From: a virus
Direction: 5' to 3' (one strand)
Length of the DNA: 64,000 bases
Virus record (IMG/VR): IMGVR_UViG_3300029825_000002
Span: 23,129 to 87,128 of that record
This document shows positions 1-44,094 of this stretch, piece by piece. The position numbers and the translations under genes are program-made. Within the stretch, counting starts at the first letter, position 1. The number at the start of each line of letters is the position of its first letter. The notes under the pieces were generated by a model. That model saw only the letters and a list, made by a program, of their open reading frames with translations, was not told where the DNA came from and did not search any database.

Positions 1-3000
1 GGTGGTGATGGTCAAGCAATAATAACACCAATAATAGAAGACAGTAGAGTTGGGGAAGAGACAAGCCGAAGAATTCAATTAAGATGGAGAATAAGAGTAG
101 TTGATGGAGTAGACTTTAGTCAATTACCTGAAGGAGTGGGAGCTGTAGGTAGTCCTGCTTTAAATGAATTAGATATCCCCTTTGGTTTAGGAGGAAGTAA
201 TTTATCTAATTCTGATATAGCAAGTAATTTAGATGCCAATTACAGATACACACACCAATTCCATAAAGAAATCCAAAGTTCTTGGAATGTTACAGACCCT
301 CTAATAAATGATGTAGGGTTATATAGAGCAGGATATACTAAGGGGTATCCAATAGAAAATACAGCAGATGGATTTAGTTATGCTATTCCAATGTTTAAAG
401 TTCATAGAAGAAATTCTGGAGGATATAGTACTAATAATGGCAACGGAAGTATAACCTATACCAAAATTACTTTTACAAGACCTACTAGTATAGAAGCACA
501 TGGGATAGGTCAGTATACTGTGTCAGTTTCAGATTATACTAATATTAGTGTTAATGATATATTTATGATGAATTCTATACCCCAATGGAAAATTTTATCT
601 AAAAATGATAATAATACTGTAACAGTATTAAATCTATCAAATGGTATTCAAGGTACAGGAACTATTAGCGTAGTAAAATATACTAGACCAGATATATTAT
701 TAGCAGATATAGTAGATGATAGAGATATATTAGATTTACGTCATCAAGTATCTCTTACTGGATTTAATTATCAAGAACTTTTAGAAGAAAACTTTGATAA
801 GTTATTAAGGGGAGAATTGCAGACAAAAGAAAGAACAAAAATGCTTAAAACTTATCATGGTATACCTAAAACACCTATAGATGCAAATACTGTTTTTTAT
901 GCTAGTTTAGATGGAACTACTACAGCAGAAGTAGGGGGAAACCCTACAGGTGGTAGTTGTTCATTTAGAACTTATCCAACAGGTTTGGGATTTAAAGATA
1001 ATGGAAGTGACCTATATTATACCCTATTAAATGGGATGCCTAGTGAATTTACAATAGATTATTGGGGATTTAGTGCAATATGTTTAACCAAAGGTAAATG
1101 CTCCATTTCTAATAATTATGACACTGGTATTATACTAGGTTCAGATATGTGTTTGTTTAAAGGTGTTGTATATAATACAGGGTTAATACTATCAAAAAAT
1201 AATATGTATCTTACTCATAATAGGTATACTTATAAAGATGGAATTTTTAAAGCATATATTAATGGTCAGTTGCGTTTAAATATAAGTATAGATTTGAGTT
1301 CTTACTTAAATACATTAGACACATTAAATTTATTCCAGTATTCTACAAAAAGGGGTACTGAACAACGTTATTCTGATTTATCTGTATCTAATATAGATAG
1401 AGGTTCTACTTTTGCTACTTTACCACAGGACTTTATTGATGGATATGCCAGAATATCTCCTGCTTTTAATTCACAGCGAAATGTTTTTTCAGATGCACTT
1501 ACTACAGAAACAAAGCAAGAATTAATAAATGTAGATGGCACAAAAAATAAACCTTATATCCATTTAGGAGATGCTACAGATTGGATAAAAGATGATTCTA
1601 CTAAATGGAACGCAGGAGATAAAGTAAAACTTGATACTTTAACTGGAGAAATAATAACAGGAGTAATAGATGCGGATACAGCCATAGCTAAAATAGTAGA
1701 AGTCATAAGTAGTAATAATGGAGATTATAGATATAAATTAAATGATGTATCAAAAATTGTTGTAAATGACAAATTAACTTGCATAGATGGTTCTTACCTA
1801 ATAATAACAGCTATTGACACTACTACTAATATAATAACTGGGGAATCCCATAATATATCTGAGGCAATTTATGCGGGTTTATTAAATTATGCTATAGGTG
1901 ATTTATTATATGAAACTACAGCTTCATCTTCTTCACCTTTAGTTAAATTTAATGCTACTGGAACATTACAATCAGGAGGAACAAATACTATTACATTACC
2001 TTCAACCTATAATATCAATGATAACTTCTATAATGGATTTATAATCAGTATAGATAGTGGAACTGGAGCAGGGCAAGTAAAGACAATAACTGATTATGTA
2101 GGAAGTACAAAAGTAGCTACAGTAGATAGTAATTGGACTACTCAACCAGATAATACTTCTGTTATTACTATTCATAATATAGATGTTGGTGGTACATGGT
2201 CAGGTTTGGGAACGACAGAAGCTATTTATACATTACCTGCAACTTTACCTAGTGGATTAACCAATCAATCTTTAGCATTGACTTATGCCATGACAGAAAT
2301 GTCAGGACAAGGTGGAATACCAGAAGTACTTACACAAACACTTGCAGGAGAATATAAGGGGGATAAATTAATTCCTAATCCTGCACATCATATATTAGAT
2401 GATTTTCAAGGAAAAGTAGCAGGAAGTGTGATAGAAAATCCAAATATAGGTAGACGCACAAATGGAAATGGTAGTCAAACAAGTTTGCTTTTACCTCTTT
2501 CACATAATGAAGCTGAAATGGAACTAGGTGTGAATGATTCAGGTATTACAAATATAGAAAAATTAGATGGTTCTTCCATAGGTACTACTACTAATATAAC
2601 TAATGCCATACCTCAACACTTATTTGCATTTAATTTAATAGAAATAGTAGAGAGAAAATATGGTGTTATTCCAGGTTCTACTATGGCAGATAAAGTTACA
2701 TGGTTAAAAAATAATTTAGCTAGTATTACTTGTAATTGGTGGGGATATGGTTCATGCCCTAGTGGTAATAAAGCAGAATTGAAAAGATTTAACTTTCTTA
2801 GCGGTACATGGTCGACTGTTAATATATCACACACACTAAATTATTCTAGTTTACTAACTTATTCAGACCTTTCCTATAATTTGACTACTGCTACATTAAT
2901 AGATTCTAATGGATTTATATATTATCTTGCTTATACAGATGCTTCAGATGGAACAACACCTTCAACTATATATACAGACTATATAAATATAGAAGTAACA

Positions 3001-3624
3001 CTAAAAATACCTACTGGTTATGATGTTTTAGCTCCAGAAAATCTTAGAAGGGATGCAGGAAAGAGTAATATAATTCTGGTTAGAAAAGAGACTAAAGAAA
3101 TACAATTAATGTTGGGTAGTGGAGATAATTTAAATGGAATAATTACTTATGGAAATACACTAATAAATCAAAGTGTTACAAAACAGACAGGTAATATAAT
3201 ATATACACATCCATTTTTATATATAACTACTAGTGGTACAGGAACTTGCAAAGATAGCACTTTAAAATATAGGGATGTGTCTTGTAGATTACCTAAACCT
3301 AATAATTCTTATGCAGATTATCAATTATCCGAAGATATTATATCAGCAGAATGTGCAGAAAATTTGGCAGTAATATTAGCTACCTGTTCTTTAAAGAGTA
3401 ATTATAGAAATTTAAATAATATTATATCAAGTGATGGAGCAATTTTAGTTGCACCTGCTCTATCTAAGGTTATAAGTAAACTTGTATTAGGAGTAAGTTT
3501 AGTAGATGTAAATGGTCAACTATTCTTAAAAGTTAGATGTAAATTTGATACTAGCAATAATGTAGATAATAATGGGTCAGAAATAGCAGACTATTATTTA
3601 AATCATAAACCTTTAATAAAATAA
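1..3624 (+). CDS. Tail fibre / receptor-binding virion protein (5' end upstream of window)
   Basis: Frame is open from base 1, before the GTG at 136; long T/G/N/S-rich beta-type protein with a LamG-like segment; lies directly upstream of XkdX, holin and lysin. Confidence 0.65.
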   Translation, partial: GGDGQAIITPIIEDSRVGEETSRRIQLRWRIRVVDGVDFSQLPEGVGAVGSPALNELDIPFGLGGSNLSNSDIASNLDANYRYTHQFHKEIQSSWNVTDPLINDVGLYRAGYTKGYPIENTADGFSYAIPMFKVHRRNSGGYSTNNGNGSITYTKITFTRPTSIEAHGIGQYTVSVSDYTNISVNDIFMMNSIPQWKILSKNDNNTVTVLNLSNGIQGTGTISVVKYTRPDILLADIVDDRDILDLRHQVSLTGFNYQELLEENFDKLLRGELQTKERTKMLKTYHGIPKTPIDANTVFYASLDGTTTAEVGGNPTGGSCSFRTYPTGLGFKDNGSDLYYTLLNGMPSEFTIDYWGFSAICLTKGKCSISNNYDTGIILGSDMCLFKGVVYNTGLILSKNNMYLTHNRYTYKDGIFKAYINGQLRLNISIDLSSYLNTLDTLNLFQYSTKRGTEQRYSDLSVSNIDRGSTFATLPQDFIDGYARISPAFNSQRNVFSDALTTETKQELINVDGTKNKPYIHLGDATDWIKDDSTKWNAGDKVKLDTLTGEIITGVIDADTAIAKIVEVISSNNGDYRYKLNDVSKIVVNDKLTCIDGSYLIITAIDTTTNIITGESHNISEAIYAGLLNYAIGDLLYETTASSSSPLVKFNATGTLQSGGTNTITLPSTYNINDNFYNGFIISIDSGTGAGQVKTITDYVGSTKVATVDSNWTTQPDNTSVITIHNIDVGGTWSGLGTTEAIYTLPATLPSGLTNQSLALTYAMTEMSGQGGIPEVLTQTLAGEYKGDKLIPNPAHHILDDFQGKVAGSVIENPNIGRRTNGNGSQTSLLLPLSHNEAEMELGVNDSGITNIEKLDGSSIGTTTNITNAIPQHLFAFNLIEIVERKYGVIPGSTMADKVTWLKNNLASITCNWWGYGSCPSGNKAELKRFNFLSGTWSTVNISHTLNYSSLLTYSDLSYNLTTATLIDSNGFIYYLAYTDASDGTTPSTIYTDYINIEVTLKIPTGYDVLAPENLRRDAGKSNIILVRKETKEIQLMLGSGDNLNGIITYGNTLINQSVTKQTGNIIYTHPFLYITTSGTGTCKDSTLKYRDVSCRLPKPNNSYADYQLSEDIISAECAENLAVILATCSLKSNYRNLNNIISSDGAILVAPALSKVISKLVLGVSLVDVNGQLFLKVRCKFDTSNNVDNNGSEIADYYLNHKPLIK

Positions 3625-3631
3625 AACTAAC

Positions 3632-3660
3632 TTGATTGTTATTAATATTAGGAATATACT
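3632..3660 (+). promoter_or_regulatory. SigA-type promoter for the HNH gene
   Basis: TTGATT-17-TATACT. Confidence 0.55.
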
Positions 3661-3695
3661 TTATGTAGGTTACTAAAAGTTAGGAGGAATACACT

Positions 3696-4316
3696 TTGAG
3701 CAACAAAATATGCAAAGTTGAAGGGTGTCTACATAAAGTATTATCTAAAGGTTATTGTAGTCGACATTATGACCAAATAAGAAAATTGGGTAGAATAAAA
3801 AGAACTAAATGGGATGCCAATGAAATAATAGTACATTCTGATTATGCAGAAATGTTATTGTACAATGGACAAGGAATAGAAGTAGCAAGAACATTAATAG
3901 ACCTAATAGATATACCCTTATTGTCCAAATATAAATGGTATTTAAGAAAAGGTGACCATGGAAACAACTATGTTGTTAATGCCAGTACTAGAGAACCTAT
4001 TCATAGATTTTTATTAAATGTTACTAGTAAAAATAAGGAAGTAGACCATAGAGATAGAAATACCCTAAATAATAGACGTTATAATTTACGGGTAGTTACA
4101 GGATTACAAAATTCTCAAAATAGAAGTGTAAGAAAAGATAGTAGTTCTGGTATAAGAGGTGTACACTTAGAAAAACGAACAGGAAAATATATAGCTTATA
4201 TTACAGTAAATAAACAAAGAATGTTTTTAGGAAGGTATTCAGATATAACTATGGCTACACAAGTAAGAATTAATGCTGAAAAAGAATATTTTGGAGAATA
4301 TAGACCTATAAGTTAA
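3696..4316 (+). CDS. Free-standing HNH homing endonuclease with C-terminal AP2 domain
   Basis: IHRFLL..VDHRDRNTLNNRRYNLR HNH motif; SSSGIRGVH..GKYIAYI..FLGRY AP2 motif. Confidence 0.85.
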   Translation: MSNKICKVEGCLHKVLSKGYCSRHYDQIRKLGRIKRTKWDANEIIVHSDYAEMLLYNGQGIEVARTLIDLIDIPLLSKYKWYLRKGDHGNNYVVNASTREPIHRFLLNVTSKNKEVDHRDRNTLNNRRYNLRVVTGLQNSQNRSVRKDSSSGIRGVHLEKRTGKYIAYITVNKQRMFLGRYSDITMATQVRINAEKEYFGEYRPIS

Positions 4317-4334: not shown

Positions 4335-5111
4335 ATGAAAGATATTATGATAGATAGAATTTTGGGAAAAGTAACTTCTTCCCCTTCTCCTGTTAGTATC
4401 ACTGTGCAAGTAGCAGATGATTTCGATTGTGAAAAAGTAATACGAGTTCAGCAAGGAGAAATTCAGAAAGAAGACAGTAAAGGTAATTTGTTGTATTTAG
4501 ACACAACTAAATTAGATGAACAAGGCAATCCTACAGAAACAACAGAAAGTAGAGTTGTAACCAAAACAGAACCAGAACAAATAATTAATAGGTGGGTAGA
4601 TGATAAAGGGGCAGAACAGTCACACACAGTAACAATTCAATCACCTGTAGAATGGTATGATAATGAATTAGAAATGGTTCCTAATATGGTTGATACTAAT
4701 ATAAAATATTCCGAAAATCCTTATGAATTTACTTTGGATGAAATACTAGAAGCTAAATATAAAACCATATTAGAAGCTTCACAGGAAGATAATATATTGG
4801 CAGATATGTTCTTGGATGAAAATGATTTAGATTTAACAGATGTAAATCATAAAGCTAATACTGGAGTAGGAATTTTAGAACTATTACCTGATGGACAGGC
4901 AGTAACCAAAAGTATTACTTTGGCAAAGTCTACTTCTACTTTTACCTTACTAGAATTTAATAGTGATACTGGAGTAGATATTTATATAAATGATGTTAAA
5001 TTTACAGGTAATACTGTTACACTTGCAAGTGCTGTAGATAATTGTACTATAAAATTTGTGAATACGACCAATAAGCTTAAATTAGTAAAATCATATGCTA
5101 TTGGTTATTAA
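4335..5111 (+). CDS. Tail-associated hypothetical protein
   Basis: AGGAGG SD; position between tail fibre and XkdX. Confidence 0.5.
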   Translation: MKDIMIDRILGKVTSSPSPVSITVQVADDFDCEKVIRVQQGEIQKEDSKGNLLYLDTTKLDEQGNPTETTESRVVTKTEPEQIINRWVDDKGAEQSHTVTIQSPVEWYDNELEMVPNMVDTNIKYSENPYEFTLDEILEAKYKTILEASQEDNILADMFLDENDLDLTDVNHKANTGVGILELLPDGQAVTKSITLAKSTSTFTLLEFNSDTGVDIYINDVKFTGNTVTLASAVDNCTIKFVNTTNKLKLVKSYAIGY

Positions 5112-7922: not shown

Positions 7923-10466
7923 ATGATTAAAGTAATAGTAAAAGAGAATAAACAAATTTATGGTTTAACAACTAAACAGAAAAAGAAAATAAAACATGAA
8001 CTAACTTTCATTAATCCAATGTATTTATCTGCTAAGAAGTTTAGTAGAAGACCTCAAAATGTATCTGTGGACAAGTATATTTTTCTGTATAAAGATAATG
8101 GAGCATATTTAACTGTTCCTGTTGGTTTTAATATCCCTTTTGATAAATTATACCTTGAAGATAATAGGATTGAAAATACAGTATCATATGCTCCATTTAA
8201 ATTAAAGCTTAGAGAAACACAAAAAGAAGCTTATTTAACTTATTTACAAGATACAGACAAAGGTACAATAGTTCTTCCAACAGGTGTTGGTAAAAGTTTA
8301 ACTGCAATTTACATAGCTTATTCTCTTAGACAAAAAACTTTAGTCATTGTACATAAAGATGATTTGATAGATGGATGGAATAAAGATATTAAATTAGCTT
8401 TTAATAACAAAGTAAAACCAGGATTAATAAAAGCAAAGAGTAGAAAAGTGGGAAAACAAATAACTTTAGCTACAGTTCAAACATTAAGTAGACTAAATGA
8501 TAAAGAATTTAATAATTTAACTAAACAATTTGGACTTGTTATTATTGATGAATGTTTAGTAGGAGATACTTTAGTTACTTTAGATGATGGTGGTTTTAAA
8601 CAAATTAAGGATATAAAAAATAATCAAAAAGTATTAGGTGGAAAAGTAGCAAATAAATTTAGCAGAATGTCTAGTATATATAGAGTTGAAAGTACCCATT
8701 CTATTTTAGAAGGAAGTCCTACACATCCAACTTTTATCCTAGATGGTTCAAAAGTTAATAAAAAATCTAAAAATGTATTTACTAAAGAAGATTTAGAATT
8801 AAAGTGTTTAAAAGATGTTAAAAAAGGAGATTATATTCCAATAATTAATAAGTTACCTCATACTGTTAAATATAATTGGACAAAAGACCAACTATCTTTT
8901 GTTGCTATGATTATGGTAGATGGTCATTTAGATAAAGCATTAAATAGTAGAAGAATAAAGGTTAATATCACAAAAGACCAAGAGTGGTATAGAAATATTT
9001 TTAAGAAGGGAATAAACTCTTTTGAAAAAATAGTGGGGAAATTAGAAATTAAGGAAAGTTATGATTGTAGGAATAATTTAACGCTTTGGGTTAATTCCAA
9101 TGAATTAAGAAATATATTAAAAAATACTTTTAAAATACCTTATGGGAAAAAATCCAATAAGTTAATTATACCTGAAATGGTTATGTATTCACCATTAGAA
9201 AGTATACAGGCTTTTATAGAAACTCTTTTTAATTGTGAAGGAGATTTTAGTATAACTAAAAATAGTAGACGTATCAATATAGGTATGTGTTCTAAATTAT
9301 TTATACAGGGATTATCTTTACTGCTTAAAAAATTTAATATTCTAAGCAATTATCAAGAAATAGTTAAATACAATAATCATAATTCATTATATAGAATTAG
9401 TTGTGGTGGAATTAATTTTAATAAGTTTATGAATACTTTTAATTTAATAGACAGAAAAAATACAGAGTATAGAAATATAGAACAAAATAGAGGTTTTAAT
9501 ATTGGTGATTATACTTTAGTAAGGGTTAAAAAGTCTTTTATGACTACTAGAAAGGAAAAGGTTTATGATTATACCACTACTTCACATACCTTTATTGCTA
9601 ATGGTTGTTTAACCCATAATTGTCATCACACTCCTGCTAATTCTTATTCTTTAATTAATAAATTTCCTGCACAGTACAAAATAGGATTAACGGCAACAGA
9701 TGAAAGAAAAGACGGATTAGATGAATTAATAACTTTATATCTAGGTGATGTTTGTTATAGATATAAAGCTAAAAGAAATGACAAAAATATTTTACCTGGA
9801 GAAGTTCATATAAAAGTTTTACCCGAAGTTATTTTTTATCCTCACTTTCAAAAGAAGGGAAAGTCATGGAGAAGATGTTCAGATAAATTAGGAACAGCAA
9901 TTAATAAAATAAATTATAAATATAGACCTAGAATTAACTATACAGAGATAGATGATTTTGCAGTAACTAATCCTTTAACAATAATACAAGTAACCTATGA
10001 TATAAAAAAAGAAGTGGAACAAGGTCATAGTTGTTTAATATTCTTTAAGAAAAAAGACCATATTAAAAAGTATGCTGAAGTTCTTAAAGAAATGGGTTAT
10101 GAAGATACACTACTTTTGTATTATGGTGATAGCAAAATGAGTAAAGAGGAAATGAAGGGACTTGCAGAAAGTAGAAAGAAGTTAATTACTTTAGCAACTT
10201 ACTCAATAGCTACAGAAGGAACAAACGTAAAGTCCTGGGAAGTGTGTTTTTTAGTTGGTAATATTTCAGATGGTAAGAATGTTGAACAAGCAGTTGGAAG
10301 GGTAAGACGTATAAAAGAAGGAAAAATAAAAACAGCAAAAGTATATGATTATAGATTCCCCAATGTTTATTCTTTGGGTGGTCAAGGAAAAGAAAGAACA
10401 AAACGGTATAGAGAATTAAAATTTAAAATAATAAATGATTCTAAGCGAAAGAGTATATTCTGCTAA
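7923..10466 (+). CDS. SF2 DExH helicase containing an intein
   Basis: LPTGVGKS Walker A; IIDE-[intein]-CHH; GLTAT; QAVGRVRR; ATG 7923 follows GAGG. Confidence 0.9.
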   Translation: MIKVIVKENKQIYGLTTKQKKKIKHELTFINPMYLSAKKFSRRPQNVSVDKYIFLYKDNGAYLTVPVGFNIPFDKLYLEDNRIENTVSYAPFKLKLRETQKEAYLTYLQDTDKGTIVLPTGVGKSLTAIYIAYSLRQKTLVIVHKDDLIDGWNKDIKLAFNNKVKPGLIKAKSRKVGKQITLATVQTLSRLNDKEFNNLTKQFGLVIIDECLVGDTLVTLDDGGFKQIKDIKNNQKVLGGKVANKFSRMSSIYRVESTHSILEGSPTHPTFILDGSKVNKKSKNVFTKEDLELKCLKDVKKGDYIPIINKLPHTVKYNWTKDQLSFVAMIMVDGHLDKALNSRRIKVNITKDQEWYRNIFKKGINSFEKIVGKLEIKESYDCRNNLTLWVNSNELRNILKNTFKIPYGKKSNKLIIPEMVMYSPLESIQAFIETLFNCEGDFSITKNSRRINIGMCSKLFIQGLSLLLKKFNILSNYQEIVKYNNHNSLYRISCGGINFNKFMNTFNLIDRKNTEYRNIEQNRGFNIGDYTLVRVKKSFMTTRKEKVYDYTTTSHTFIANGCLTHNCHHTPANSYSLINKFPAQYKIGLTATDERKDGLDELITLYLGDVCYRYKAKRNDKNILPGEVHIKVLPEVIFYPHFQKKGKSWRRCSDKLGTAINKINYKYRPRINYTEIDDFAVTNPLTIIQVTYDIKKEVEQGHSCLIFFKKKDHIKKYAEVLKEMGYEDTLLLYYGDSKMSKEEMKGLAESRKKLITLATYSIATEGTNVKSWEVCFLVGNISDGKNVEQAVGRVRRIKEGKIKTAKVYDYRFPNVYSLGGQGKERTKRYRELKFKIINDSKRKSIFC
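8553..9620 (+). mobile_element. Intein with LAGLIDADG endonuclease (356 aa) in the DECH motif
   Basis: Starts CLVGDTLV, ends THN, +1 residue Cys; AMIMVDGH and TLFNCEG LAGLIDADG-like blocks. Confidence 0.92.
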
Positions 10467-10483
10467 AAGATATACTCTTTTTT
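10449..10483 (+). terminator. Intrinsic terminator
   Basis: AAGAGTATAT/ATATACTCTT stem plus T run. Confidence 0.65.
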
Positions 10484-10485
10484 GT

Positions 10486-10514
10486 TTGACTTTGTTTCTA
10501 AATTAATATACAAT
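10486..10514 (+). promoter_or_regulatory. SigA-type promoter
   Basis: TTGACT-17-TACAAT. Confidence 0.7.
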
Positions 10515-10558
10515 TAGTATAAATACTTAATATTAGCTCGAAAGTAGGTGAAAATAAT

Positions 10559-10834
10559 ATGAATAAAAAAGAGTTTGATGAACAACAACTAAGACTTTCA
10601 AGGTATGCTAATGTAACACGAAGGATAGATGACATTAATGCAGTTGTAGACCATCAATCTTTAATAAAAAATAATAATGTTGAAAACACTTCTTTAAAGC
10701 TAGTTTCATATGTTCAAGGTAGTTCTCTTACTAAAGAAGTATTTTTTAATTCTAATCATCCTATTAGCAAAGCAATAATTAAACTTTTAAAAGATGAAGT
10801 TATATGTTTAGAAAAAGAAAGAGATAAAATTTAA
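10559..10834 (+). CDS. Hypothetical protein
   Basis: ORF with AGGTG SD. Confidence 0.55.
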   Translation: MNKKEFDEQQLRLSRYANVTRRIDDINAVVDHQSLIKNNNVENTSLKLVSYVQGSSLTKEVFFNSNHPISKAIIKLLKDEVICLEKERDKI

Positions 10835-10844
10835 GGAGGAAAAT

Positions 10845-11375
10845 ATGAAAAAGTTATTAAAGAAAGTGGGAGACAAGAAAGTAAAAGAAAGTACCATTGA
10901 AGAAGATGTTCAAGAATATAATCTTTTAAGAACCAAAGTCAAAACCATTAAAAATAGAATGGATGAATTGGCAACAAAGATTAAGGAATTTTCTATTAAA
11001 AATGGAACAAAAGATGATAAAGGCAATTGTTATTCTACTAATGATACTTTTATATATGGTGCAAAAGCAGTTAAAAAGATAAAGTGGAATACAGAAAAAG
11101 CAGAAGAATACTTTAGGGGAAAGAAATTGTGGGACAAGGTAATAGACATTAGAGAAAGTATAAATGATGATAAAGTAGAACAGTTAATAACAAATAATGA
11201 ACTCACAGAAGATGAATTGGAAGATTTAGTTGATATGACAGTTAATTATTCAGTAGATGTACATTTAAAAGAAAATGAAGAAAAGATACAAGAGAATATA
11301 GCAAAACATAGTCCTGTTACTACTAAAAGAACTGGACAAACTCAAAGAAAAGTACAAGCATTAAGACATAGATAG
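10845..11375 (+). CDS. Hypothetical coiled-coil protein
   Basis: AAGGAGG SD; helical N-terminus. Confidence 0.6.
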   Translation: MKKLLKKVGDKKVKESTIEEDVQEYNLLRTKVKTIKNRMDELATKIKEFSIKNGTKDDKGNCYSTNDTFIYGAKAVKKIKWNTEKAEEYFRGKKLWDKVIDIRESINDDKVEQLITNNELTEDELEDLVDMTVNYSVDVHLKENEEKIQENIAKHSPVTTKRTGQTQRKVQALRHR

Positions 11376-37010: not shown

Positions 37011-37610
37011 ATGAAATTAAAAAAAGTATCTAAAGTAGAAAAGAAACCAGTAGTTAATAAGAAAAAGAAGATAAGAACTAGAAAACAAGTAAAAGCAGAA
37101 ATGATGGCTTTACGAAGAATTATTTTGGACAACCATAGAGCCACACCAGAACAGAAAGAAAAATTGGAAAGTTTACAGAAAGAATTAAAAAGTAAAATTG
37201 GTAGAAGTTCAAAGAATAAAGGAGCTAATTATGAAAGAAATTTAGCTAAATTATTCAATGAAGCATACAGAATAGAATTGAAAAGAACTCCCCAAAGTGG
37301 CGGATTTGCAAAGAAAAGTAGTAAAGCAGATGATTTTCGGGGAGATATAATAACAGTAGATAAAGATATAAACTTAAAGCTTCATATAGAAGCTAAGAAT
37401 CATAAAAAAGCTAATATTAATGGATGGTTAAAACAAGCCAATGATGATTGTCCAGAAGGAAAAATACCTATTGTAATATGGCATAAGGAAAATACTAATC
37501 CTAAAGTTGGTGAACAAGGAAATCAACAGGATTTAGTTCTAATAGATTTGAAAGACTTTTTTAGGTTAGTACCAAAGGCAAACATTATAGAAGAGAAACG
37601 AGGTAAATAA
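37011..37610 (+). CDS. Hjc-type Holliday junction resolvase
   Basis: SKNKGANYER..RTPQSGG..GDI..IEAKN..WLKQA. Confidence 0.8.
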   Translation: MKLKKVSKVEKKPVVNKKKKIRTRKQVKAEMMALRRIILDNHRATPEQKEKLESLQKELKSKIGRSSKNKGANYERNLAKLFNEAYRIELKRTPQSGGFAKKSSKADDFRGDIITVDKDINLKLHIEAKNHKKANINGWLKQANDDCPEGKIPIVIWHKENTNPKVGEQGNQQDLVLIDLKDFFRLVPKANIIEEKRGK

Positions 37611-37611
37611 C

Positions 37612-38001
37612 ATGGTTCATATTGCAGAAATTATTGGATGCCTAATTGGCATAGGAGTAGTACTCTGTTGTTTTTATGTTGTCAGAGTTGAAGGTACATC
37701 AATGCTCCCTACGTATAAGCGTGGTGATATTCTTTTAGCTACACGAGTATTTTCAAGAAAACATCTTGAAATAGATAGTGTTTATATAATAAAAACATCT
37801 AAGTTTTATAATTCAATAATATTTAAAAAGATGTTTCCTCATAAATTTATTATTAAAAGATTAAAAGTTTGGGATGCCAAACATCATTTAGTATGGATTG
37901 AAGGGGATAACAAAGCAGAATCATATGACAGTAGATATTTTGGTTTTATCACAGAAAAAAGTATTGTAGCAAAAGTATTGTGGCAAATAAAGAAGAGTTA
38001 A
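37612..38001 (+). CDS. S26 (signal peptidase I-like) serine peptidase
   Basis: N-terminal TM; VEGTSMLPT catalytic Ser; IIKRL catalytic Lys; GDN..SYDSRYFG. Confidence 0.88.
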   Translation: MVHIAEIIGCLIGIGVVLCCFYVVRVEGTSMLPTYKRGDILLATRVFSRKHLEIDSVYIIKTSKFYNSIIFKKMFPHKFIIKRLKVWDAKHHLVWIEGDNKAESYDSRYFGFITEKSIVAKVLWQIKKS

Positions 38002-38032
38002 AATAACAACTAATACAGGAGGAATGATAGAA

Positions 38033-39305
38033 ATGGATAAGAAGAAAAATATATTAAAAGTAGCGGGTAAAAGTAATGTCTCTAAAGTATCTGGAAGTAT
38101 AATTAAAAGCATAGAAGATAACAAAGATGTTGAACTTCATTCAATAGGTGCTAAATAGCATTGGCTCCTAGTAAAAAACACTGCGAAATTAAGCGGGAAG
38201 GCTGAAAAGTTAATCCGAACCGAAGGCGTGTTGTAAAAACACTAAGCTATGTATGAATGGCATAGCTATAAGCTTAAAAACTTAGTCAGGGGCAGAGCAT
38301 AGGGAGTGAACCTATAATTATAGAATATAATCTCCTCACGAGGTCGCAGTAATCTATTTTATTTCTTGCACAGTTTGATTAAATATGTTAATGTTAATAT
38401 GTAATTAATCAAACAAGTAAGGAGTGATTAACATTGTCTAATCAATATAGTAAGCAAACTTTAGCTAATATACTTACAAAAGAATATCTTGAAAAAGAAT
38501 ATGTGCAAAAACGAAGATTTATAAAGGATATATCATTAGAGGTTGGTTGTAGTTTAAATTCAGTTAGAAACTATTTAAAGAAATATAATATAGATATAGA
38601 AAATAGATATGAAGATAGACAAACCTTTAAAGGTTTAAATCCTGCTAGAAAAATAATGACTAAAGTTTATTTAAAAGAAGAATATGTGCATAAAAATAGG
38701 TCACTAAATAATATAGCTAGAGAACTAAATTGCTCTAGTGCTTTAGTCAAAGAAATGCTTTTAACACATGGAATAAAAGTAGACAAGCTAAAGTATGGTG
38801 AAACTTTTGAATTGTGCAATGGAGTTTCAGAAAGTCATGGTTATTTATTAGTCTATATGCCTAATCATAGATTAGCGGATAAGAAAGGTTATGTAAGATT
38901 ACACATATTACTAGCAGAGCATTATTTTAATAGACTAGTTAAAAAAGGTGAAGTTGTACATCATAAAAATTTTAATAAATTGGATAACACACCTGATAAT
39001 TTAGTTATTATGACTAAAAAAGAACATGACAGACTTCATGCTCAATTAAGATGGGATAATGATAATTTTAGATAGATTAAAAAGATATGCCGAACTAATA
39101 CAAATATAAGTATTAGAATTATAGGATAAAAAGCCTATAAGATAACATTATGGCTGCTGTAAATCAAGGTGCAAAAGCAATAGCTACTGCAAGAGGAATA
39201 ATGGCTACAAAAGGATATGACATTTTAGTTAAAATTGGCTTTGATGAAGTAGAGATTGAGGGAGAAACACGAACTATGCTGAAGTTTATTTTAGTTGTAC
39301 AGTAA
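38033..39305 (+). CDS. spoVS: SpoVS homologue, join(38033..38152,39153..39305), 90 aa
   Basis: Spliced product ILKVAGKSNVSKVSGSI..SIGA|AAVNQGAKAIATARG..GFDEVEIEGETRTMLKF follows the SpoVS pattern; absent from the ORF track. Confidence 0.9.
38153..39152 (+). mobile_element. Group I intron in spoVS
   Basis: U|...G| boundaries; P1 UAGGUGCU/GGCUCCUA with U-G; P3 ACUGCGA/UCGCAGU; P7 GCAUA/UAUGC. Confidence 0.9.
38434..39075 (+). CDS. Intron-encoded HNH endonuclease with two N-terminal HTH-like repeats
   Basis: GYVRLHILLAE..VVHHKNFNKLDNTPDNL; repeated L.KEYL..EYV..I..E..CS. Confidence 0.88.
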   Translation: MSNQYSKQTLANILTKEYLEKEYVQKRRFIKDISLEVGCSLNSVRNYLKKYNIDIENRYEDRQTFKGLNPARKIMTKVYLKEEYVHKNRSLNNIARELNCSSALVKEMLLTHGIKVDKLKYGETFELCNGVSESHGYLLVYMPNHRLADKKGYVRLHILLAEHYFNRLVKKGEVVHHKNFNKLDNTPDNLVIMTKKEHDRLHAQLRWDNDNFR

Positions 39306-39610
39306 TGGTTCATCTAGGACATTTTATAATATTTAAACATAGTGGTGGGTTTATTGTTTATAATGAACATAAACCCTTTCATCATAAAGGTATTAAAGGA
39401 CATTCTCATTTGCGGAATTATTCTAGTGCTAGATATGCAGTTATTTGCGTAAAGCAGAATAAAATTCCTCGAAAGTGTTCTTTAAGATATTTAGAAACAT
39501 TAATAAGACTTTCGGAAGATGAAAAGTATATAAAGAAAGTACAACAATTAATTAAAACTAGAAAACAAAAAGGAAAGAAACAAAAACCAGTAAAGAAAAA
39601 ATTAAAGTAA
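39305..39610 (+). CDS. Basic hypothetical protein
   Basis: Start overlaps the spoVS stop (TAATG). Confidence 0.6.
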   Translation: MVHLGHFIIFKHSGGFIVYNEHKPFHHKGIKGHSHLRNYSSARYAVICVKQNKIPRKCSLRYLETLIRLSEDEKYIKKVQQLIKTRKQKGKKQKPVKKKLK

Positions 39611-39631
39611 AAATATATGGAGGTAATTAAT

Positions 39632-39757
39632 ATGGAAAATAACTTATTATATAATGGAGGGGCAATAGTTAGTGTAACAAAGGTATTTAATGACATTTCA
39701 TGTTCTCATTTCTTAAAAGAGTATCAAGGTAAAGAAGGTGTTAAATTTGGGTACTAA
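39632..39757 (+). pseudogene. Orphan 5' fragment of queD (41 codons)
   Basis: GGAGGT SD; VTKVFNDISCSHFLKEYQGK parallels the QueD N-terminus. Confidence 0.7.
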
Positions 39758-41039
39758 AAGAGTTATAATATCCAAAGAACAGCTTCAAGAATGTCTTGAT
39801 TTAGGTTTAACAAGAATAAAGATGGCAGAAAGATTTAAATGTGGTGTAGTTACATTAGATAGAAATATGAAAGCTAATGGATTAGAATATCTTAAATCTA
39901 GTCATTTTAATAGTGGTGAAGGTAATCCTGCCAAAAGACCTTCAGTTAGAAGAAAGATAGCTAATACTGTTGCAACTTTATGGGAAGATGGTTTTTATGA
40001 CAATAGAATAGATGGTATGAGTTATAAAACAGGATTTGATGACCCTAATTATAAAGGTCATAAATGGGATTATAGAGATTATCTTGCTAAATATCAGGAT
40101 ATAAATGTATGTGCTGAATGTGGTAGAACAATAAAAGATAGTAAAATTGATGTTCACCATGTGGATGAAAACCATGAAAACTGGTTAATCACTAATTTAA
40201 AACCTTTATGTGTTAAATGTCATCAAACTAAACATTATAAATCTATGAAAACTCCTTATGTAACTATAGGTATTAAAAGCCATTTTGATTCTGCTCATAA
40301 TCTTTTAAACTATAAAGGTAAGTGTTCTCGAATCCATGGACACCGATATTTTTATGAAATTAAAATTAAGGATAGAATAAATAGAGAAACAGGAATGGTA
40401 ATGGATTTTAAGGTTCTGAAAAAACTTATAAAAGAAGGATTTGAAGAAGTAGTTGACCATGAATATTTAAATTATGTTTTACCTTTTAATACTACAGCAG
40501 AAAATATGGTAGTATGGATGTTTGAATTTTTAAGTAAAAGGCAATTAGTAAAAGGTATACAAGAAATTTCTTTATGGGAAACTCCTGAATGTATAACTAC
40601 ATTTACTTATAAAGATTTATTAAGAAGCTACATGGAAAACAAATTAGATTGTTTTACTACTAATTTTGAAGAAGATACAAAGAATTTTGACACCCAGTTA
40701 GTTGAAGATAATTTAGCAAAGAAAATGCAGGAGCAAGTATTTATTTATTGTGGTGAACGTCAACAATTGGGTAAAACTACTGGTTTAATTAATCAAGTAA
40801 GAAAAGATTCAGATGGAATACTAATTGTAGCTAATAGAGTAACTTCTAAACTGATTTATAGTAGATTTGGTATGAGAAGAAATAAAGTTTGGACATTAAA
40901 AGAATTAATGCAACATTCACCAGAGAGATTTAATTTGTATATAGACAATTTAACTCCAGAGCAAAGAGTAAATTTATTAAATTATGTTAATAGGAATAAA
41001 GGTTACTATATAATCAGAAATATGATTATAGAAGCATAA
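39738..41039 (+). CDS. queD: HNH endonuclease - QueD - P-loop-like fusion
   Basis: CAECG..VHHVDENHEN..LCVKCH; FDSAH..KCSRIHGH..GMVMDF..DHEYLN..TTAEN..LWET; C-terminal GERQQLGKTT. Confidence 0.88.
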   Translation: MLNLGTKRVIISKEQLQECLDLGLTRIKMAERFKCGVVTLDRNMKANGLEYLKSSHFNSGEGNPAKRPSVRRKIANTVATLWEDGFYDNRIDGMSYKTGFDDPNYKGHKWDYRDYLAKYQDINVCAECGRTIKDSKIDVHHVDENHENWLITNLKPLCVKCHQTKHYKSMKTPYVTIGIKSHFDSAHNLLNYKGKCSRIHGHRYFYEIKIKDRINRETGMVMDFKVLKKLIKEGFEEVVDHEYLNYVLPFNTTAENMVVWMFEFLSKRQLVKGIQEISLWETPECITTFTYKDLLRSYMENKLDCFTTNFEEDTKNFDTQLVEDNLAKKMQEQVFIYCGERQQLGKTTGLINQVRKDSDGILIVANRVTSKLIYSRFGMRRNKVWTLKELMQHSPERFNLYIDNLTPEQRVNLLNYVNRNKGYYIIRNMIIEA

Positions 41040-41054
41040 AAGAGGTGACAATTA

Positions 41055-41690
41055 ATGATATATTATCAGAATATCTTTACAAGTATTCAAGGAGAAGGAT
41101 ATGATTCAGGGAAACCTTGTACCTTTGTTAGATTATATGGTTGTAACTTACACTGTAAGTATTGTGACCAGATACAGACAGAGAAAGATAGAAAAACAAT
41201 TTCGGTAAAAAGAATGGTTGAATTAGTAAGAAGTAAGCATATACAGAATGTATGTATTACTGGAGGTGAACCTCTATTACAATCAGAAATATTTGAAGTT
41301 ATTTATGAATTAGTTAAAGCTAATTATAAAGTTAGTATTGAAACCAATGGATGTTGTCTTATACCAGATGACCCTTACGCCAGGTCATTTAAGTATGTTA
41401 TGGATGTTAAAGGACCTTCTAGTGGAATGGTGGCAAAGAATATTTATAGCAACCTGGATATACTTCATGCAGAAGATGAAGTTAAGTTTTTAATTTCAGA
41501 TAGAAAAGACTATGACTTTGCTTTAAAAACAATGCAGAAGCACCCTATTAAATCTAAAATACTATTTAGTCCAGTAATGGCTAAAGGGAAAGCTACCATT
41601 GGAAAAGAACTTGTGCATTGGATGATTGAGGATAAATTAAATAATGTTAAGTTGCAGATTCAGCTTCATAAAGTGGTTGGGGTAATGTAG
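41055..41690 (+). CDS. queE: 7-carboxy-7-deazaguanine synthase (radical SAM)
   Basis: SIQGEG..FVRLYGCNLHCKYCD; TGGEP; IETNG; QLHK. Confidence 0.95.
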   Translation: MIYYQNIFTSIQGEGYDSGKPCTFVRLYGCNLHCKYCDQIQTEKDRKTISVKRMVELVRSKHIQNVCITGGEPLLQSEIFEVIYELVKANYKVSIETNGCCLIPDDPYARSFKYVMDVKGPSSGMVAKNIYSNLDILHAEDEVKFLISDRKDYDFALKTMQKHPIKSKILFSPVMAKGKATIGKELVHWMIEDKLNNVKLQIQLHKVVGVM

Positions 41691-41768
41691 TATGAAAAAG
41701 AATGATGTGGTAGACCAGTTTATAATATTTATGATTGTTGTTTATGCTATAACCTTTATTATATTACT

Positions 41769-41981
41769 GTGGTAAGTGATAAAATGACTAAAAAGAAACA
41801 AAAACCTTTTATGGATATACAATTAGATATAACTAAAGAAGGAGTTAAATATGGAGTAACAATATCTAAGGATGAAGATGGTTACTTTGCTAGAACACAT
41901 AGAGCAAGTTCAAGAAAAAGATATAGCAGTAAAAGAGCCATTCCTAAAAGTGTATTAAAAAGTGTAGAAAGGACTGGTTAA
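41769..41981 (+). CDS. Small basic hypothetical protein
   Basis: ARTHRASSRKRY. Confidence 0.5.
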   Translation: MVSDKMTKKKQKPFMDIQLDITKEGVKYGVTISKDEDGYFARTHRASSRKRYSSKRAIPKSVLKSVERTG

Positions 41982-42018
41982 AATTAATAAAGATAGAATA
42001 ATTGAATGTAGTGTAAAT

Positions 42019-42249
42019 GTGGCTTTTAGATTAGTAAGAAGTCTTTTCTTTCTATTAATGATTATTGGGTTACTTTCACTACTTAATATATGTGGAACAG
42101 ACCCTTTAAAGAATAATTTACTTAAACTCATATTTTTAAGTATTCTTACTGAAATAATGGTAACACAAATATTTTATACAAATGATATAACTAATCAACT
42201 AAATAGATTAAAAGAAAGGGATGATAGTGAATGTCCCAAAAGAAAATGA
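42019..42249 (+). CDS. Small membrane protein
   Basis: Two hydrophobic segments. Confidence 0.45.
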   Translation: MAFRLVRSLFFLLMIIGLLSLLNICGTDPLKNNLLKLIFLSILTEIMVTQIFYTNDITNQLNRLKERDDSECPKRK

Positions 42250-42446
42250 CAAGAACGGAAATATCTAAAAAGCCTAACAATGAAAAGATTAAAGTATATG
42301 CAGGTGGAGAAGTAAGAACAATAACCTTTAGACAATTAAAAAAGAATATGGGTATACCTGATAGAAGTGGGGGTGATAATATGGGTAAGTGTAAAGGTGG
42401 AAAGAAATCTTCGGGTTCTAAAAAGAAATCTAAAAGTAGCAAATAA
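42231..42446 (+). CDS. Small K/G/S-rich basic protein
   Basis: AAGGG SD; KCKGGKKSSGSKKKSKSSK tail. Confidence 0.55.
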   Translation: MSQKKMTRTEISKKPNNEKIKVYAGGEVRTITFRQLKKNMGIPDRSGGDNMGKCKGGKKSSGSKKKSKSSK

Positions 42447-42460
42447 AGGAGTATATAACA

Positions 42461-43195
42461 ATGCTAAACAAATATAATTGGTACAATAAAATTAAGGATA
42501 AAAGAATAGTATTACTTCAAAGTGGGGGATTAGACAGCAATATTGTAGCAGCTTTACTATCTTATTATCATTTTTCTATACAGCATCTATTTATAGATTA
42601 TGGTCAGAATATGCTAGAGCAAGAAAGGAAAAATGCTAGACTAATAGTAAAACATTATGGTGGGAAACTAACAGAAACTAAAATAGATTTACCCTGGTTA
42701 AAAGAAGCCACGAATTTAGTAGATAATGTTGTTAATGATGAAGGAGCAATAGGAAAGTTTAATACCTATGATGTGGGAACTTATGTACCTTTAAGAAATC
42801 ATGTACTATTAAGTATAGCAGGTTCTTTAGCTGAAGCCTATAAAATACCTAATATAGCTTGTGCTTTTGATGGTTGTCAAAATATTCTAGGAAAACCTAC
42901 AGGTGGAACAACAGATAAACACCCTAAATTTATACACAGGATTGAACAATCTATTAATGAAGGTTCAGCTATGTATCATATTGAACATAAACCTATCCAG
43001 ATACTAACACCTATTATGAATTTTTATAAAACAGATACGATTCAGTTAGGTTTAGAGTTAAATGCAGATATGTCTATTAGTTGGAGTTGTTATAATAAGG
43101 GAGATAAACCTTGTGGTCATTGTAGTGCTTGTGAAGATAGAGAAGAAGCCTTTAGAGTATTAGGAATAGACGACCCCGCTTTATCTGAAAAATAA
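42461..43195 (+). CDS. queC: 7-cyano-7-deazaguanine synthase
   Basis: SGGLDS; YVPLRN; SWSCY..PCGHCSACEDR. Confidence 0.95.
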   Translation: MLNKYNWYNKIKDKRIVLLQSGGLDSNIVAALLSYYHFSIQHLFIDYGQNMLEQERKNARLIVKHYGGKLTETKIDLPWLKEATNLVDNVVNDEGAIGKFNTYDVGTYVPLRNHVLLSIAGSLAEAYKIPNIACAFDGCQNILGKPTGGTTDKHPKFIHRIEQSINEGSAMYHIEHKPIQILTPIMNFYKTDTIQLGLELNADMSISWSCYNKGDKPCGHCSACEDREEAFRVLGIDDPALSEK

Positions 43196-43260
43196 GGTTG
43201 TTTTAATTCTTTATTTGTATTACAATATAACTATAGAAATTAATTAAGGAGGGATGTAAA

Positions 43261-43404
43261 ATGTCTAGTACATCAGGAAGTCCAGGTCAGAAAAGAGCTA
43301 ATAAAGTATTTGGTGGAAAGAAGCTTTCAGCAGGAAATGTTACTTTAAAAGGTAATAATAAGTTGCGTGGAAATAATGGTAATACACAATCAAAAGGTAA
43401 ATAA
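43261..43404 (+). CDS. Small G/K/N-rich basic protein (47 aa)
   Basis: AAGGAGG SD; MSSTSGSPGQKRANKVFGGKKLSAG...; not in ORF track. Confidence 0.55.
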   Translation: MSSTSGSPGQKRANKVFGGKKLSAGNVTLKGNNKLRGNNGNTQSKGK

Positions 43405-43416
43405 GTAAGTAAACAG

Positions 43417-43444
43417 AAAGGACATTTAATTATGTCCTTTTTTT
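43417..43444 (+). terminator. Intrinsic terminator
   Basis: AAAGGACAT/ATGTCCTTT stem plus T run. Confidence 0.75.
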
Positions 43445-43485
43445 GTGTTATAATTTATTTAAATAACATTTAGGAGGAATTTAAT

Positions 43486-44094
43486 ATGAATTTAAACGAA
43501 GAATTAAATGAAGGTAAAAAGCAGTTAATAGAAGATAAAGTTGGGGAAATAATGAATATTTTAGATTTATCTCTTACAGATGATAATAGAGAAACACCTA
43601 GAAGAATAGCTAAAATGTTAGTAGATGAATTATTTAAAAATAGAAATGGTAATAATATAGAAGAATTAAATAATCAGATGAAGCTATTTAATTCACCAGA
43701 ATATCCTGACCTTGTAGTAGTTAAAGATATTCCTTTTCATTCTGTTTGTAGTCATCATTGGTTGCCCTTCTTTGGGAAAGTTGCAGTAGGATATATACCT
43801 AATAAGAAAATAATTGGATTAAGTAAAATACCTAGAGTAATAAAATATTTTAGTCAAAAACCACAAGTACAAGAAAGATTAACAAATGAAATAATGGAGT
43901 ATTTATGTAAAGTAATTCAGCCACTATATATAATTGTGTATATGTATGATGTTAGGCACACTTGTATGACAGTTAGAGGTATAGAAAGTGAAGGAGTAAC
44001 AAATACTTATGTAGATACCTATGACGAAGATAAAGTTAATTTAACTAGCATGATTAGATACAAAGAAAGATTTTTAGGAATGGTGGGGAAATAA
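43486..44094 (+). CDS. folE: GTP cyclohydrolase I
   Basis: ETPRRIAKM; SVCSHHWLPFFG; GLSKIPR; QVQERLT; HTCMTVRG. Confidence 0.95.
   Translation: MNLNEELNEGKKQLIEDKVGEIMNILDLSLTDDNRETPRRIAKMLVDELFKNRNGNNIEELNNQMKLFNSPEYPDLVVVKDIPFHSVCSHHWLPFFGKVAVGYIPNKKIIGLSKIPRVIKYFSQKPQVQERLTNEIMEYLCKVIQPLYIIVYMYDVRHTCMTVRGIESEGVTNTYVDTYDEDKVNLTSMIRYKERFLGMVGK

Follow-up and report, generated by a model that had tools for sequence, protein, structure and literature searches.

Homing endonuclease genes of the classical free-standing type lie between other genes and encode separate proteins. Those of phages, together with intronless homing (T4 seg/mob, I-HmuI-type HNH), are covered in the review PMC3943268, and phage nuclease genes at the boundaries of genetic exchange are dealt with in PMC10448857. 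Two fungal systems are of particular relevance here. In the WHO elements at the yeast FBA1 gene, the element restores the gene end that it displaces, and the relic left beyond the endonuclease gene has been proposed to act as a homology arm (Coughlan et al. 2020, eLife; PMC7282813). In the mobile open reading frame (ORF) of Allomyces macrogynus atp6, as presented in the atp6 account of PMC4019555, an endonuclease ORF inserted in a protein gene comes with a foreign version of the displaced gene end, which is fused in frame, and the native end persists as a leftover. Homing elements that replace a gene end have so far been documented in yeast nuclei (WHO/FBA1) and in fungal mitochondria. Here we analyze a 64-kb stretch of viral DNA ("the window"; positions 23,129 to 87,128 of IMG/VR record IMGVR_UViG_3300029825_000002), in which an HNH endonuclease is fused in frame to the enzyme QueD and the fusion gene is preceded by an overlapping 41-codon ORF, referred to below as the orphan.

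Judging from the sequences compared here, it is fairly likely that the fusion gene is a homing cassette which breaks up a resident queD at one fixed position and brings along a fused QueD of its own, and that the orphan is the displaced relic of the resident gene. A first-pass annotation of the locus, made from the DNA letters of the window, had described a 41-codon ORF with a strong Shine-Dalgarno (SD) sequence overlapping an HNH-QueD ORF, and all of these features are present where it placed them (Table 1). Its proposal of an HNH element at queD, intron-less and intein-less, also stands in outline, with a stranded 5' end upstream and QueD fused behind, and the arrangement proved to be recurrent and site-specific. 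What does not stand is a fresh invasion that brought only a replacement N-terminus, as HNH together with a whole QueD forms an old, widespread and co-diverging cassette. The first-pass proposal is partly supported and needs broadening from a single invasion to a mobile HNH-QueD cassette family.

Table 1. Features of the HNH-QueD locus in the window, and relics of queD associated with related fusion genes (locus labels beginning with L; positions are those of the window or of the locus named)
Feature	Position	Strand	Details
SD GGAGG of the orphan ORF	39619..39623	+	8 nt 5' of the ATG; read directly
Orphan ORF	39632..39757	+	ATG 39632, stop TAA 39755-39757; 41 codons plus stop
Junction	39734..39746	+	QueD likeness stops after codon 34 (K, 39731-39733)
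HNH-QueD ORF	39747 (TTG) or 39738 (GTG) to 41039	+	430-433 codons
Nuclease module	39747..40245	+	helix-turn-helix, basic helix, Cys4 HNH motif
QueD (6-carboxytetrahydropterin synthase) domain	40246..40685	+	fused in frame behind HNH
C-terminal tail	40686..41039	+	117 residues, in frame; Walker-A-like GxxxxGKT motif
ORF101	39305..39610	+	phrog_9079, function unknown; PHROG 1.5e-25
queE	41055..41690	+	radical-SAM 7-carboxy-7-deazaguanine synthase; Pfam Radical_SAM and Fer4_12
queC	start 42461		downstream of queE
folE	start 43486		downstream of queC
L034 relic	2651-2746		31 codons; separate overlapping ORF; 6.6 bits
L034 fusion gene	2743-3810		after the relic
L034 complete plain queD	3828-4277		after the fusion gene
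L026/L028/L059 relic			separate overlapping ORF; 26.8 bits, E = 2e-6
L023/L024 relic			separate overlapping ORF; 15.9 bits, E = 0.005
L003 relic			separate overlapping ORF; 5.5 bits
L022 (= P0026) relic			first 22-24 residues of the fusion protein; 5.1 bits
L031/L137 relic			first 22-24 residues of the fusion protein; 4.7 bits
L060 relic			first 22-24 residues of the fusion protein; 8.4 bits

The evidence for a fixed site comes from a scan of six-frame translations of all fetched loci with a QueD profile. QueD 5' remnants directly upstream of, or in frame with, HNH-QueD were detected in seven other distinct loci (ten with near-duplicates), which together with the window makes eight (11 with near-duplicates). 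The end of every relic falls between QueD profile positions 28 and 32 (of 131), no more than about three codons from the catalytic Cys (GK/C..HGH, the slash marking the break). When the relics were aligned together with plain QueDs by anchoring on the conserved His, their ends fell immediately ahead of the catalytic Cys in the window and in L022, L023 and L031, at the equivalent place in L034, two codons earlier in L003 and one to two codons later in L026; the break of the window is at the same QueD position as in L023, L031, L022, L060 and L034. This clustering is not an artefact of the search, because other QueD fragments are equally detectable; one of them, a 3' remnant (profile 105-127, 16 bits), was found directly after the stop of the fusion gene in L022. 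As a rough estimate, the chance of five further independent relics ending in one five-position window would be about 1e-7 if ends were spread evenly over about 110 positions. The relics point to insertion at one defined site of a conserved gene in independent lineages, as in homing. None of the five out-of-frame relic ORFs meets a stop codon before it reaches the HNH gene, whose start is then overlapped by the relic's stop by 1-14 nt; in L034 and L003 the overlaps read ATGA/TGATG.

The same organization is seen in the window. Codons 12-34 of the orphan (39665-39733) encode a QueD-like first strand and an H..L..Y.GK motif, and codons 35-41 run in another frame through the SD and the start of the HNH-QueD gene. 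The sequence GAAGGTG (39734-39740) is the SD for the TTG start, 6 nt upstream of it. At the SD of the orphan itself lies the 13-mer GGAGGTAATTAAT, which also precedes the gene at 4335 and the HNH-QueD gene of the relative L013.

One locus, L034, shows a recent event. Its relic shares 66 nt with codons 1-22 of the complete plain queD that follows the fusion gene, with one mismatch. The identity runs from the ATG exactly to the break, and the sequences upstream of the two ATGs differ. The L034 cassette is bracketed by a direct repeat of the first 22 codons of its target, which is the outcome of the model proposed for WHO elements if that model is mirrored (PMC7282813).

The protein itself consists, in order, of a helix-turn-helix (HTH), HNH, a complete QueD and a 117-residue tail. 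The TTG at 39747 is more likely to be the true start than the GTG at 39738, because the resulting N-terminus matches those of relatives. Confident helices form the HTH at residues 13-46, and a conserved basic helix at residues 68-83, which Pfam does not detect, looks NUMOD3-like by eye. The HNH motif (PF01844; residues 125-167, about 40110-40238) reaches 28.9 bits in Pfam against a cut-off of 21.4, and PHROG HNH endonuclease families match the nuclease module. In an alignment of 17 sequences C125, C128, H141, N153, C158 and C161 are invariant, while H140, H162 and H166 are present in at least 90%. An AlphaFold (AF2) model of the fusion, built on this alignment, predicts HNH strands at 137-141 and 154-158 and a helix at 159-166, with a predicted local distance difference test (pLDDT) score of about 88-95. 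Profile matches and predicted fold are consistent with membership in the HNH endonucleases of PF01844, which have a beta-beta-alpha-metal motif with a catalytic His, an Asn and a His that binds metal, here with a putative Cys4 zinc site. When the PDB was searched by sequence for the nuclease module, no match was meaningful.

Residues 177-290 match the Pfam 6-pyruvoyl-tetrahydropterin synthase (PTPS)/QueD family PF01242 at 2.3e-29 over profile positions 2-119 of 121, and the solved QueD/PTPS structures 2OBA, 4NTM and 3QN0 match the domain at 1e-10 to 5e-12. H187, C196, H200, H202, D240, H241 and E281 are invariant in the 17 sequences; we take them to be the three zinc histidines, the catalytic Cys, the Asp-His pair and the Glu. 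The domain is accordingly predicted to be a full-length T-fold member of the QueD/6-pyruvoyl-tetrahydropterin synthase family. An internal start that would yield free QueD was rejected, as the ATG at 40246 has no SD and its Met is not conserved. In the AF2 model, block pLDDT is about 84-89 for the HTH and about 87-96 for HNH and QueD, reaching about 90 or more from residue ~111, and is below 50 for most of the tail. This tail, a continuation of the ORF that the first-pass annotation had missed, begins where the relatives have their stop and is absent from all of them. It has no Pfam or PHROG match and no homologue in a word-indexed search of 5.8 billion clusters (lengths 64-205 aa only), and a single-sequence AF2 model of it was unusable (pLDDT 37). 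It may represent a small ORFan gene captured through loss of the queD stop codon.

Fusions of this type are widespread. Among 5.8 billion protein clusters, a search identified 19 further ones (272-401 aa, 38-67% identity) in which HNH and QueD come in this order, and both domains are kept down to 35% identity. Using the HNH part alone in phmmer against 1.84 billion representatives, a full QueD was found directly behind HNH in about 24 of the 28 closest other relatives (E<1e-10), and QueD was carried by 34 of the 148 newly listed representatives. Among the best 80 matches in 185,579 prokaryote genomes (one per species) a single one is fused and all others are QueD of the plain cellular kind; nearly all members of the family are viral or metagenomic. 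The fused match (L137; DAOUSF010000001.1, a 100.8-kb contig) was binned as a metagenome-assembled genome of a Methanosarcinales archaeon. It belongs to the in-frame relic type, is nearly identical to L031 and is probably a viral contig or provirus. The HNH-QueD fusion family has apparently not been described previously, since full-text literature searches for QueD together with HNH or homing endonuclease returned no paper on such a fusion. The proteins are currently annotated merely as QueD or HNH.

A quick maximum-likelihood tree built from 84 QueD domains separates the group of fused QueDs, within which three plain ones are nested, from 19 plain QueDs (Shimodaira-Hasegawa-like approximate likelihood ratio test, SH-aLRT, 85). 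Pairwise identities of the HNH and QueD-3' parts correlate (r = 0.59; 0 of 2000 Mantel permutations as high), and identity to the window declines in parallel for the two parts. This clustering and co-variation suggest that HNH and QueD have travelled largely as one unit. Since L019, L034 and protein P0040 each hold a second complete QueD in addition to the fused one, the fused QueD appears to be cargo of the element.

Several members of the family have unusual forms. A plain QueD of 130 residues (L051:2424-2816) is nested in the fused-QueD clade as sister to P0036, and is either a cassette that has lost its nuclease or of the target or ancestral allele type. P0040 (421 aa) reads HNH-QueD-QueD in one protein. 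In L019 (3058-4328), the HNH of the fusion lacks the conserved H162 and H166, and a separate, very divergent plain QueD follows. About 500 nt downstream of the fusion, another ORF is matched by the same HNH profile (E 1e-7 to 1e-10) in L026 (4251-4592) and L027 (1309-1650), and likewise in L059 (1618-1959) and L061 (1828-2172), which suggests stacked endonuclease genes as in WHO clusters.

If the fusion gene is a homing cassette, HNH, with an HTH or zinc-finger DNA-binding head, and QueD would move and evolve together as a unit aimed at phage queD. HNH would break plain queD at or near the Cys codon, and repair from the carrier genome would copy the cassette in, interrupting the resident gene just 5' of that codon. 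The first 22-34 codons of the resident would stay with their promoter-side context, ribosome-binding site and start codon. The QueD of the cassette would take over the job of the enzyme, and loss of the nuclease gene would then cost 7-deazaguanine synthesis. The orphan of the window would be such a relic, now a leader whose stop overlaps the weak TTG/GTG start of HNH-QueD. We infer termination-reinitiation coupling, in which the relic gives a strong ribosome-binding site and delivers ribosomes to HNH-QueD; in the in-frame subfamily the relic would simply supply the start codon. Further homing may also use the orphan as its left homology arm, as in the yeast WHO elements. Cutting of plain queD by HNH, copying by repair, escape of the carrier from cutting and translational coupling are all steps that we infer.

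A number of observations weigh against homing at queD, the first of them concerning the orphan. Taken alone, it is statistically weak as QueD. In hmmsearch with two QueD profiles it obtains 4.0-5.7 bits, with E about 0.8-2.4 among the 1064 stop-to-stop ORFs of the window, and Pfam PTPS does not report it. A word-indexed search for longer proteins in the 5.8 billion clusters returned no relative of the orphan and no insert-free allele. It is also absent from the nearest relatives, L012 and L013, where spoVS abuts the fusion gene. One possibility is that the 41-codon ORF is not derived from queD at all and is a chance frame or an unrelated small leader gene with an H..L..Y.GK-like string. This seems very unlikely, as the orphan ranks 2-5 of the 1064 ORFs, aligns with QueD in the correct N-terminal register (hhalign, P = 0.0026) and occupies the same spot as the clearer relics of seven other distinct loci. 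It also has a consensus SD and, like the other four out-of-frame relics, contains no stop codon ahead of its overlap with the HNH start. The orphan is only marginal by itself and becomes convincing as a queD relic because other loci have equivalent remnants, some of them highly significant, in this position ahead of members of this gene family. For this phage, the outcome partly agrees with what the first-pass annotation had named as refuting its proposal: the databases searched contain no insert-free allele starting with the orphan, and the orphan aligns weakly to QueD profiles. Support comes from the relics of the other loci.

Two further origins were considered for the orphan and rejected. 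A recent tandem duplication in this phage was dismissed because the orphan and the N-terminus of the fused QueD share few residues and have no significant DNA identity. A MAFFT alignment had suggested that the tail of the orphan is a copy of the 3' end of spoVS, which local alignment against shuffles did not support; in the latter comparison only the SD/start region of the orphan resembles that of L013.

The remaining opposing points concern the family as a whole. A relic is absent in about 14 of the 24 distinct fusion loci examined. L023 and L026, and also L022, L031 and L060, may share ancestry, which would leave perhaps only four independent events. The break coincides with a purine-rich SD-like run (E-G-K codons, GAAGGNAAR) at four of the five out-of-frame junctions. 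No empty-site allele lacking the homing endonuclease gene was found for the window orphan in the clusters searched, and when IMG/VR, where sampling is thin, was scanned for exact DNA matches to the L034 and L026 relics, the same contigs alone came back; without an empty site the classic presence/absence proof of homing is missing. Finally, L034 carries an intact copy of the presumed target beside an intact HNH gene, and the long-term conservation of HNH would also fit a domesticated function.

Most of these points can also be accommodated by module shuffling without homing. HNH-QueD would then be a domesticated fusion, in which, for example, QueD could feed the modification pathway and the nuclease act against unmodified DNA, and the relics would be scars of illegitimate recombination between mosaic phages. 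In its favor are the conservation of both domains down to 35% identity, the lack of relics in most members, the searches that found no empty-site allele, and the intact "target" tolerated in L034. Recurrence at one spot could arise through microhomology of GAAGGNAAR to the SD of the fusion gene rather than through nuclease specificity; the junctions of the window, L023, L003 and L026 are in or beside such a run, which doubles as the SD of the HNH gene. This explanation strikes us as unlikely, since L034 and the in-frame relics of L022, L031 and L060 break at the same QueD position without an SD-like run. Moreover, the head domain differs among otherwise close HNH-QueD members (HTH versus CxxC zinc finger), and swapped DNA-binding heads are typical of homing endonucleases. 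The cassette is also found in unrelated genomic contexts: its upstream neighbor is spoVS in L012 and L013, queC in L016 and an HTH gene in L017 and L018, whose genome is of Sak/YqaJ type and temperate-looking, and in L015 and L019 it is near DNA polymerase. A Radical_SAM gene (queE) follows the fusion directly in L012-L018, and a plain queD intervenes in L019 and L034. Lastly, the neighborhood is full of bona fide mobile endonucleases and inteins. Homing at queD remains our preferred interpretation.

The intact target of L034 also bears on how a homing cassette would avoid cutting its carrier. It calls into question a diverged copy of the target as the basis of immunity, since immunity based on sequence does not explain self-protection where an intact target coexists with the HNH gene. 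Another possibility, which we regard as quite unlikely, is that nuclease and enzyme are joined because immunity comes from the pathway, with HNH cutting unmodified queD DNA, for instance in newly injected or competing genomes, at GK/C..HGH and sparing DNA whose guanines are replaced by the 7-deazaguanine base to whose synthesis QueD contributes. If true, this would explain the coexistence in L034, and HNH-QueD would be a self-contained hybrid of homing endonuclease and restriction-modification logic.

The first-pass annotation had also pointed out near-repeats at 39722 and 40311. Both exist, and joining 39730 to 40320 is in frame, with a GGT codon on both sides. The orphan and the distal QueD could in principle be joined into a plain QueD at the RNA or protein level, by a group I intron, an intein or long-range bypass, and the neighboring spoVS really is split by an HNH-bearing insert that Rfam likewise does not recognize. 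We nevertheless consider such joining extremely improbable. In agreement with the first-pass annotation, which saw no group I core or intein, cmscan of 38000-42000 against Rfam (E<=10) gave no match, and the Pfam results include no Intein_splicing or Hint family. Rfam also missed the probable spoVS intron next door, and the group I intron is rejected mainly because relic and HNH ORF are separated by only some 13 non-coding nt, too few for a conserved P3-P9 intron core, and because relatives keep the "intervening" ORF without an upstream exon. As for an intein, relic and insert are in different frames, and the distal QueD needs no N-terminal addition to be complete. In the translational bypass of T4 gene 60, matched take-off and landing codons are about 50 nt apart and a stop comes right after take-off. 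Here the matched GGT codons are 589 nt apart, more than ten times that gap, no stop follows take-off, and the gap is a conserved ORF.

The window, with a GC content of 25-33%, is part of a virus record of 91.8 kb that is rated 100% complete. In the whole genome, which also encodes FolE, QueE and QueC, PF01242 matches the fused QueD alone. The ATG of ORF101, upstream of the orphan, overlaps the spoVS stop (TAATG), and ORF101 together with the orphan makes up a stretch found in the window and missing between spoVS and HNH-queD of L012 and L013. A cassette may have entered a resident ORF101-queD, or ORF101 and a queD 5' piece may have arrived beside a resident cassette; both fit equally. ORF101 was rejected as a usual neighbor of queD: it has homologues in L020 and L021, and in L020, the one examined, the homologue is closely followed by a likely terminase. 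Nothing distinctive emerged when 37500-43500 was scanned for promoters, terminators and composition. GenBank phages yielded no megablast match to 38400-43200, and tblastn with the QueD part found distant plain QueDs only.

The genome is rich in homing endonucleases, and an HNH_3 gene within the split spoVS adjoins the HNH-QueD locus. The N-terminal piece of spoVS has 41 codons (38034-38159) and the C-terminal piece 51 codons (39150-39305; phrog_35646 positions 44-92 of 93). The approximately 1 kb between them holds structured-looking non-coding sequence and the HNH_3 endonuclease ORF (38434-39075). This insert is probably a group I intron, yet Rfam identified no intron model in it even at E<=10. 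In related phages the 7-deazaguanine genes bear mobile insertions as well (L013:7371-8954 and 9987-10921; L016:6464-8131). These phages have a QueC-radical SAM fusion of 527 aa, a FolE that is interrupted by an intein and joined to a QueF-like part, and a gene following folE that contains an intein. The cluster of 7-deazaguanine genes is a hotspot of mobile insertion.

If HNH-QueD is a homing cassette, a selfish nuclease would have made itself indispensable by knocking out the resident enzyme gene and keeping the sole working copy in its own polypeptide, such that deletion of the parasite would cost the phage its DNA-modification pathway. The relics predict a cleavage site just before the catalytic Cys codon of queD, and the cassette is a possible route for the exchange of 7-deazaguanine gene clusters between unrelated phages. 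It shares with the free-standing phage endonucleases a phage-borne HNH with accessory DNA-binding modules, no self-splicing vehicle, and a spread inferred to proceed via double-strand-break repair with co-conversion of flanks. Unlike them, the nuclease is the N-terminal domain of an enzyme of the target family, which is carried as cargo. The fungal cases such as Allomyces atp6 are mitochondrial, involve C-terminal replacement and are described, in the atp6 account of PMC4019555, as intron-borne endonuclease insertions, whereas HNH-QueD leaves a 5' end as the relic, carries an entire enzyme domain and forms a large, diversified family.

Together with the Allomyces atp6 ORF, WHO elements appear to be the closest in mechanism, as analogues and not homologues. 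In both systems homing would proceed without intron or intein, the element's own copy replaces one end of a conserved enzyme gene, and a non-functional fragment of the old end persists beyond the endonuclease gene. This WHO-like organization is seen in the order of relic, HNH and QueD in the window and in the 66-nt repeat flanking the L034 cassette. Common descent is not indicated, as WHO proteins are intein-derived LAGLIDADG/zinc-finger proteins of yeast nuclei related to HO/VDE, and the phage protein is an HNH nuclease with no Hint or LAGLIDADG match. WHO elements replace the 3' end and keep a separate endonuclease gene, while HNH-QueD replaces the 5' end or the whole gene and has the nuclease translationally fused to the enzyme. 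With HNH-QueD, the class of gene-end-replacing elements would come to include elements of phages, elements acting on the 5' end of their target, and a nuclease fused in frame to an enzyme in a lineage that has lasted and diversified.

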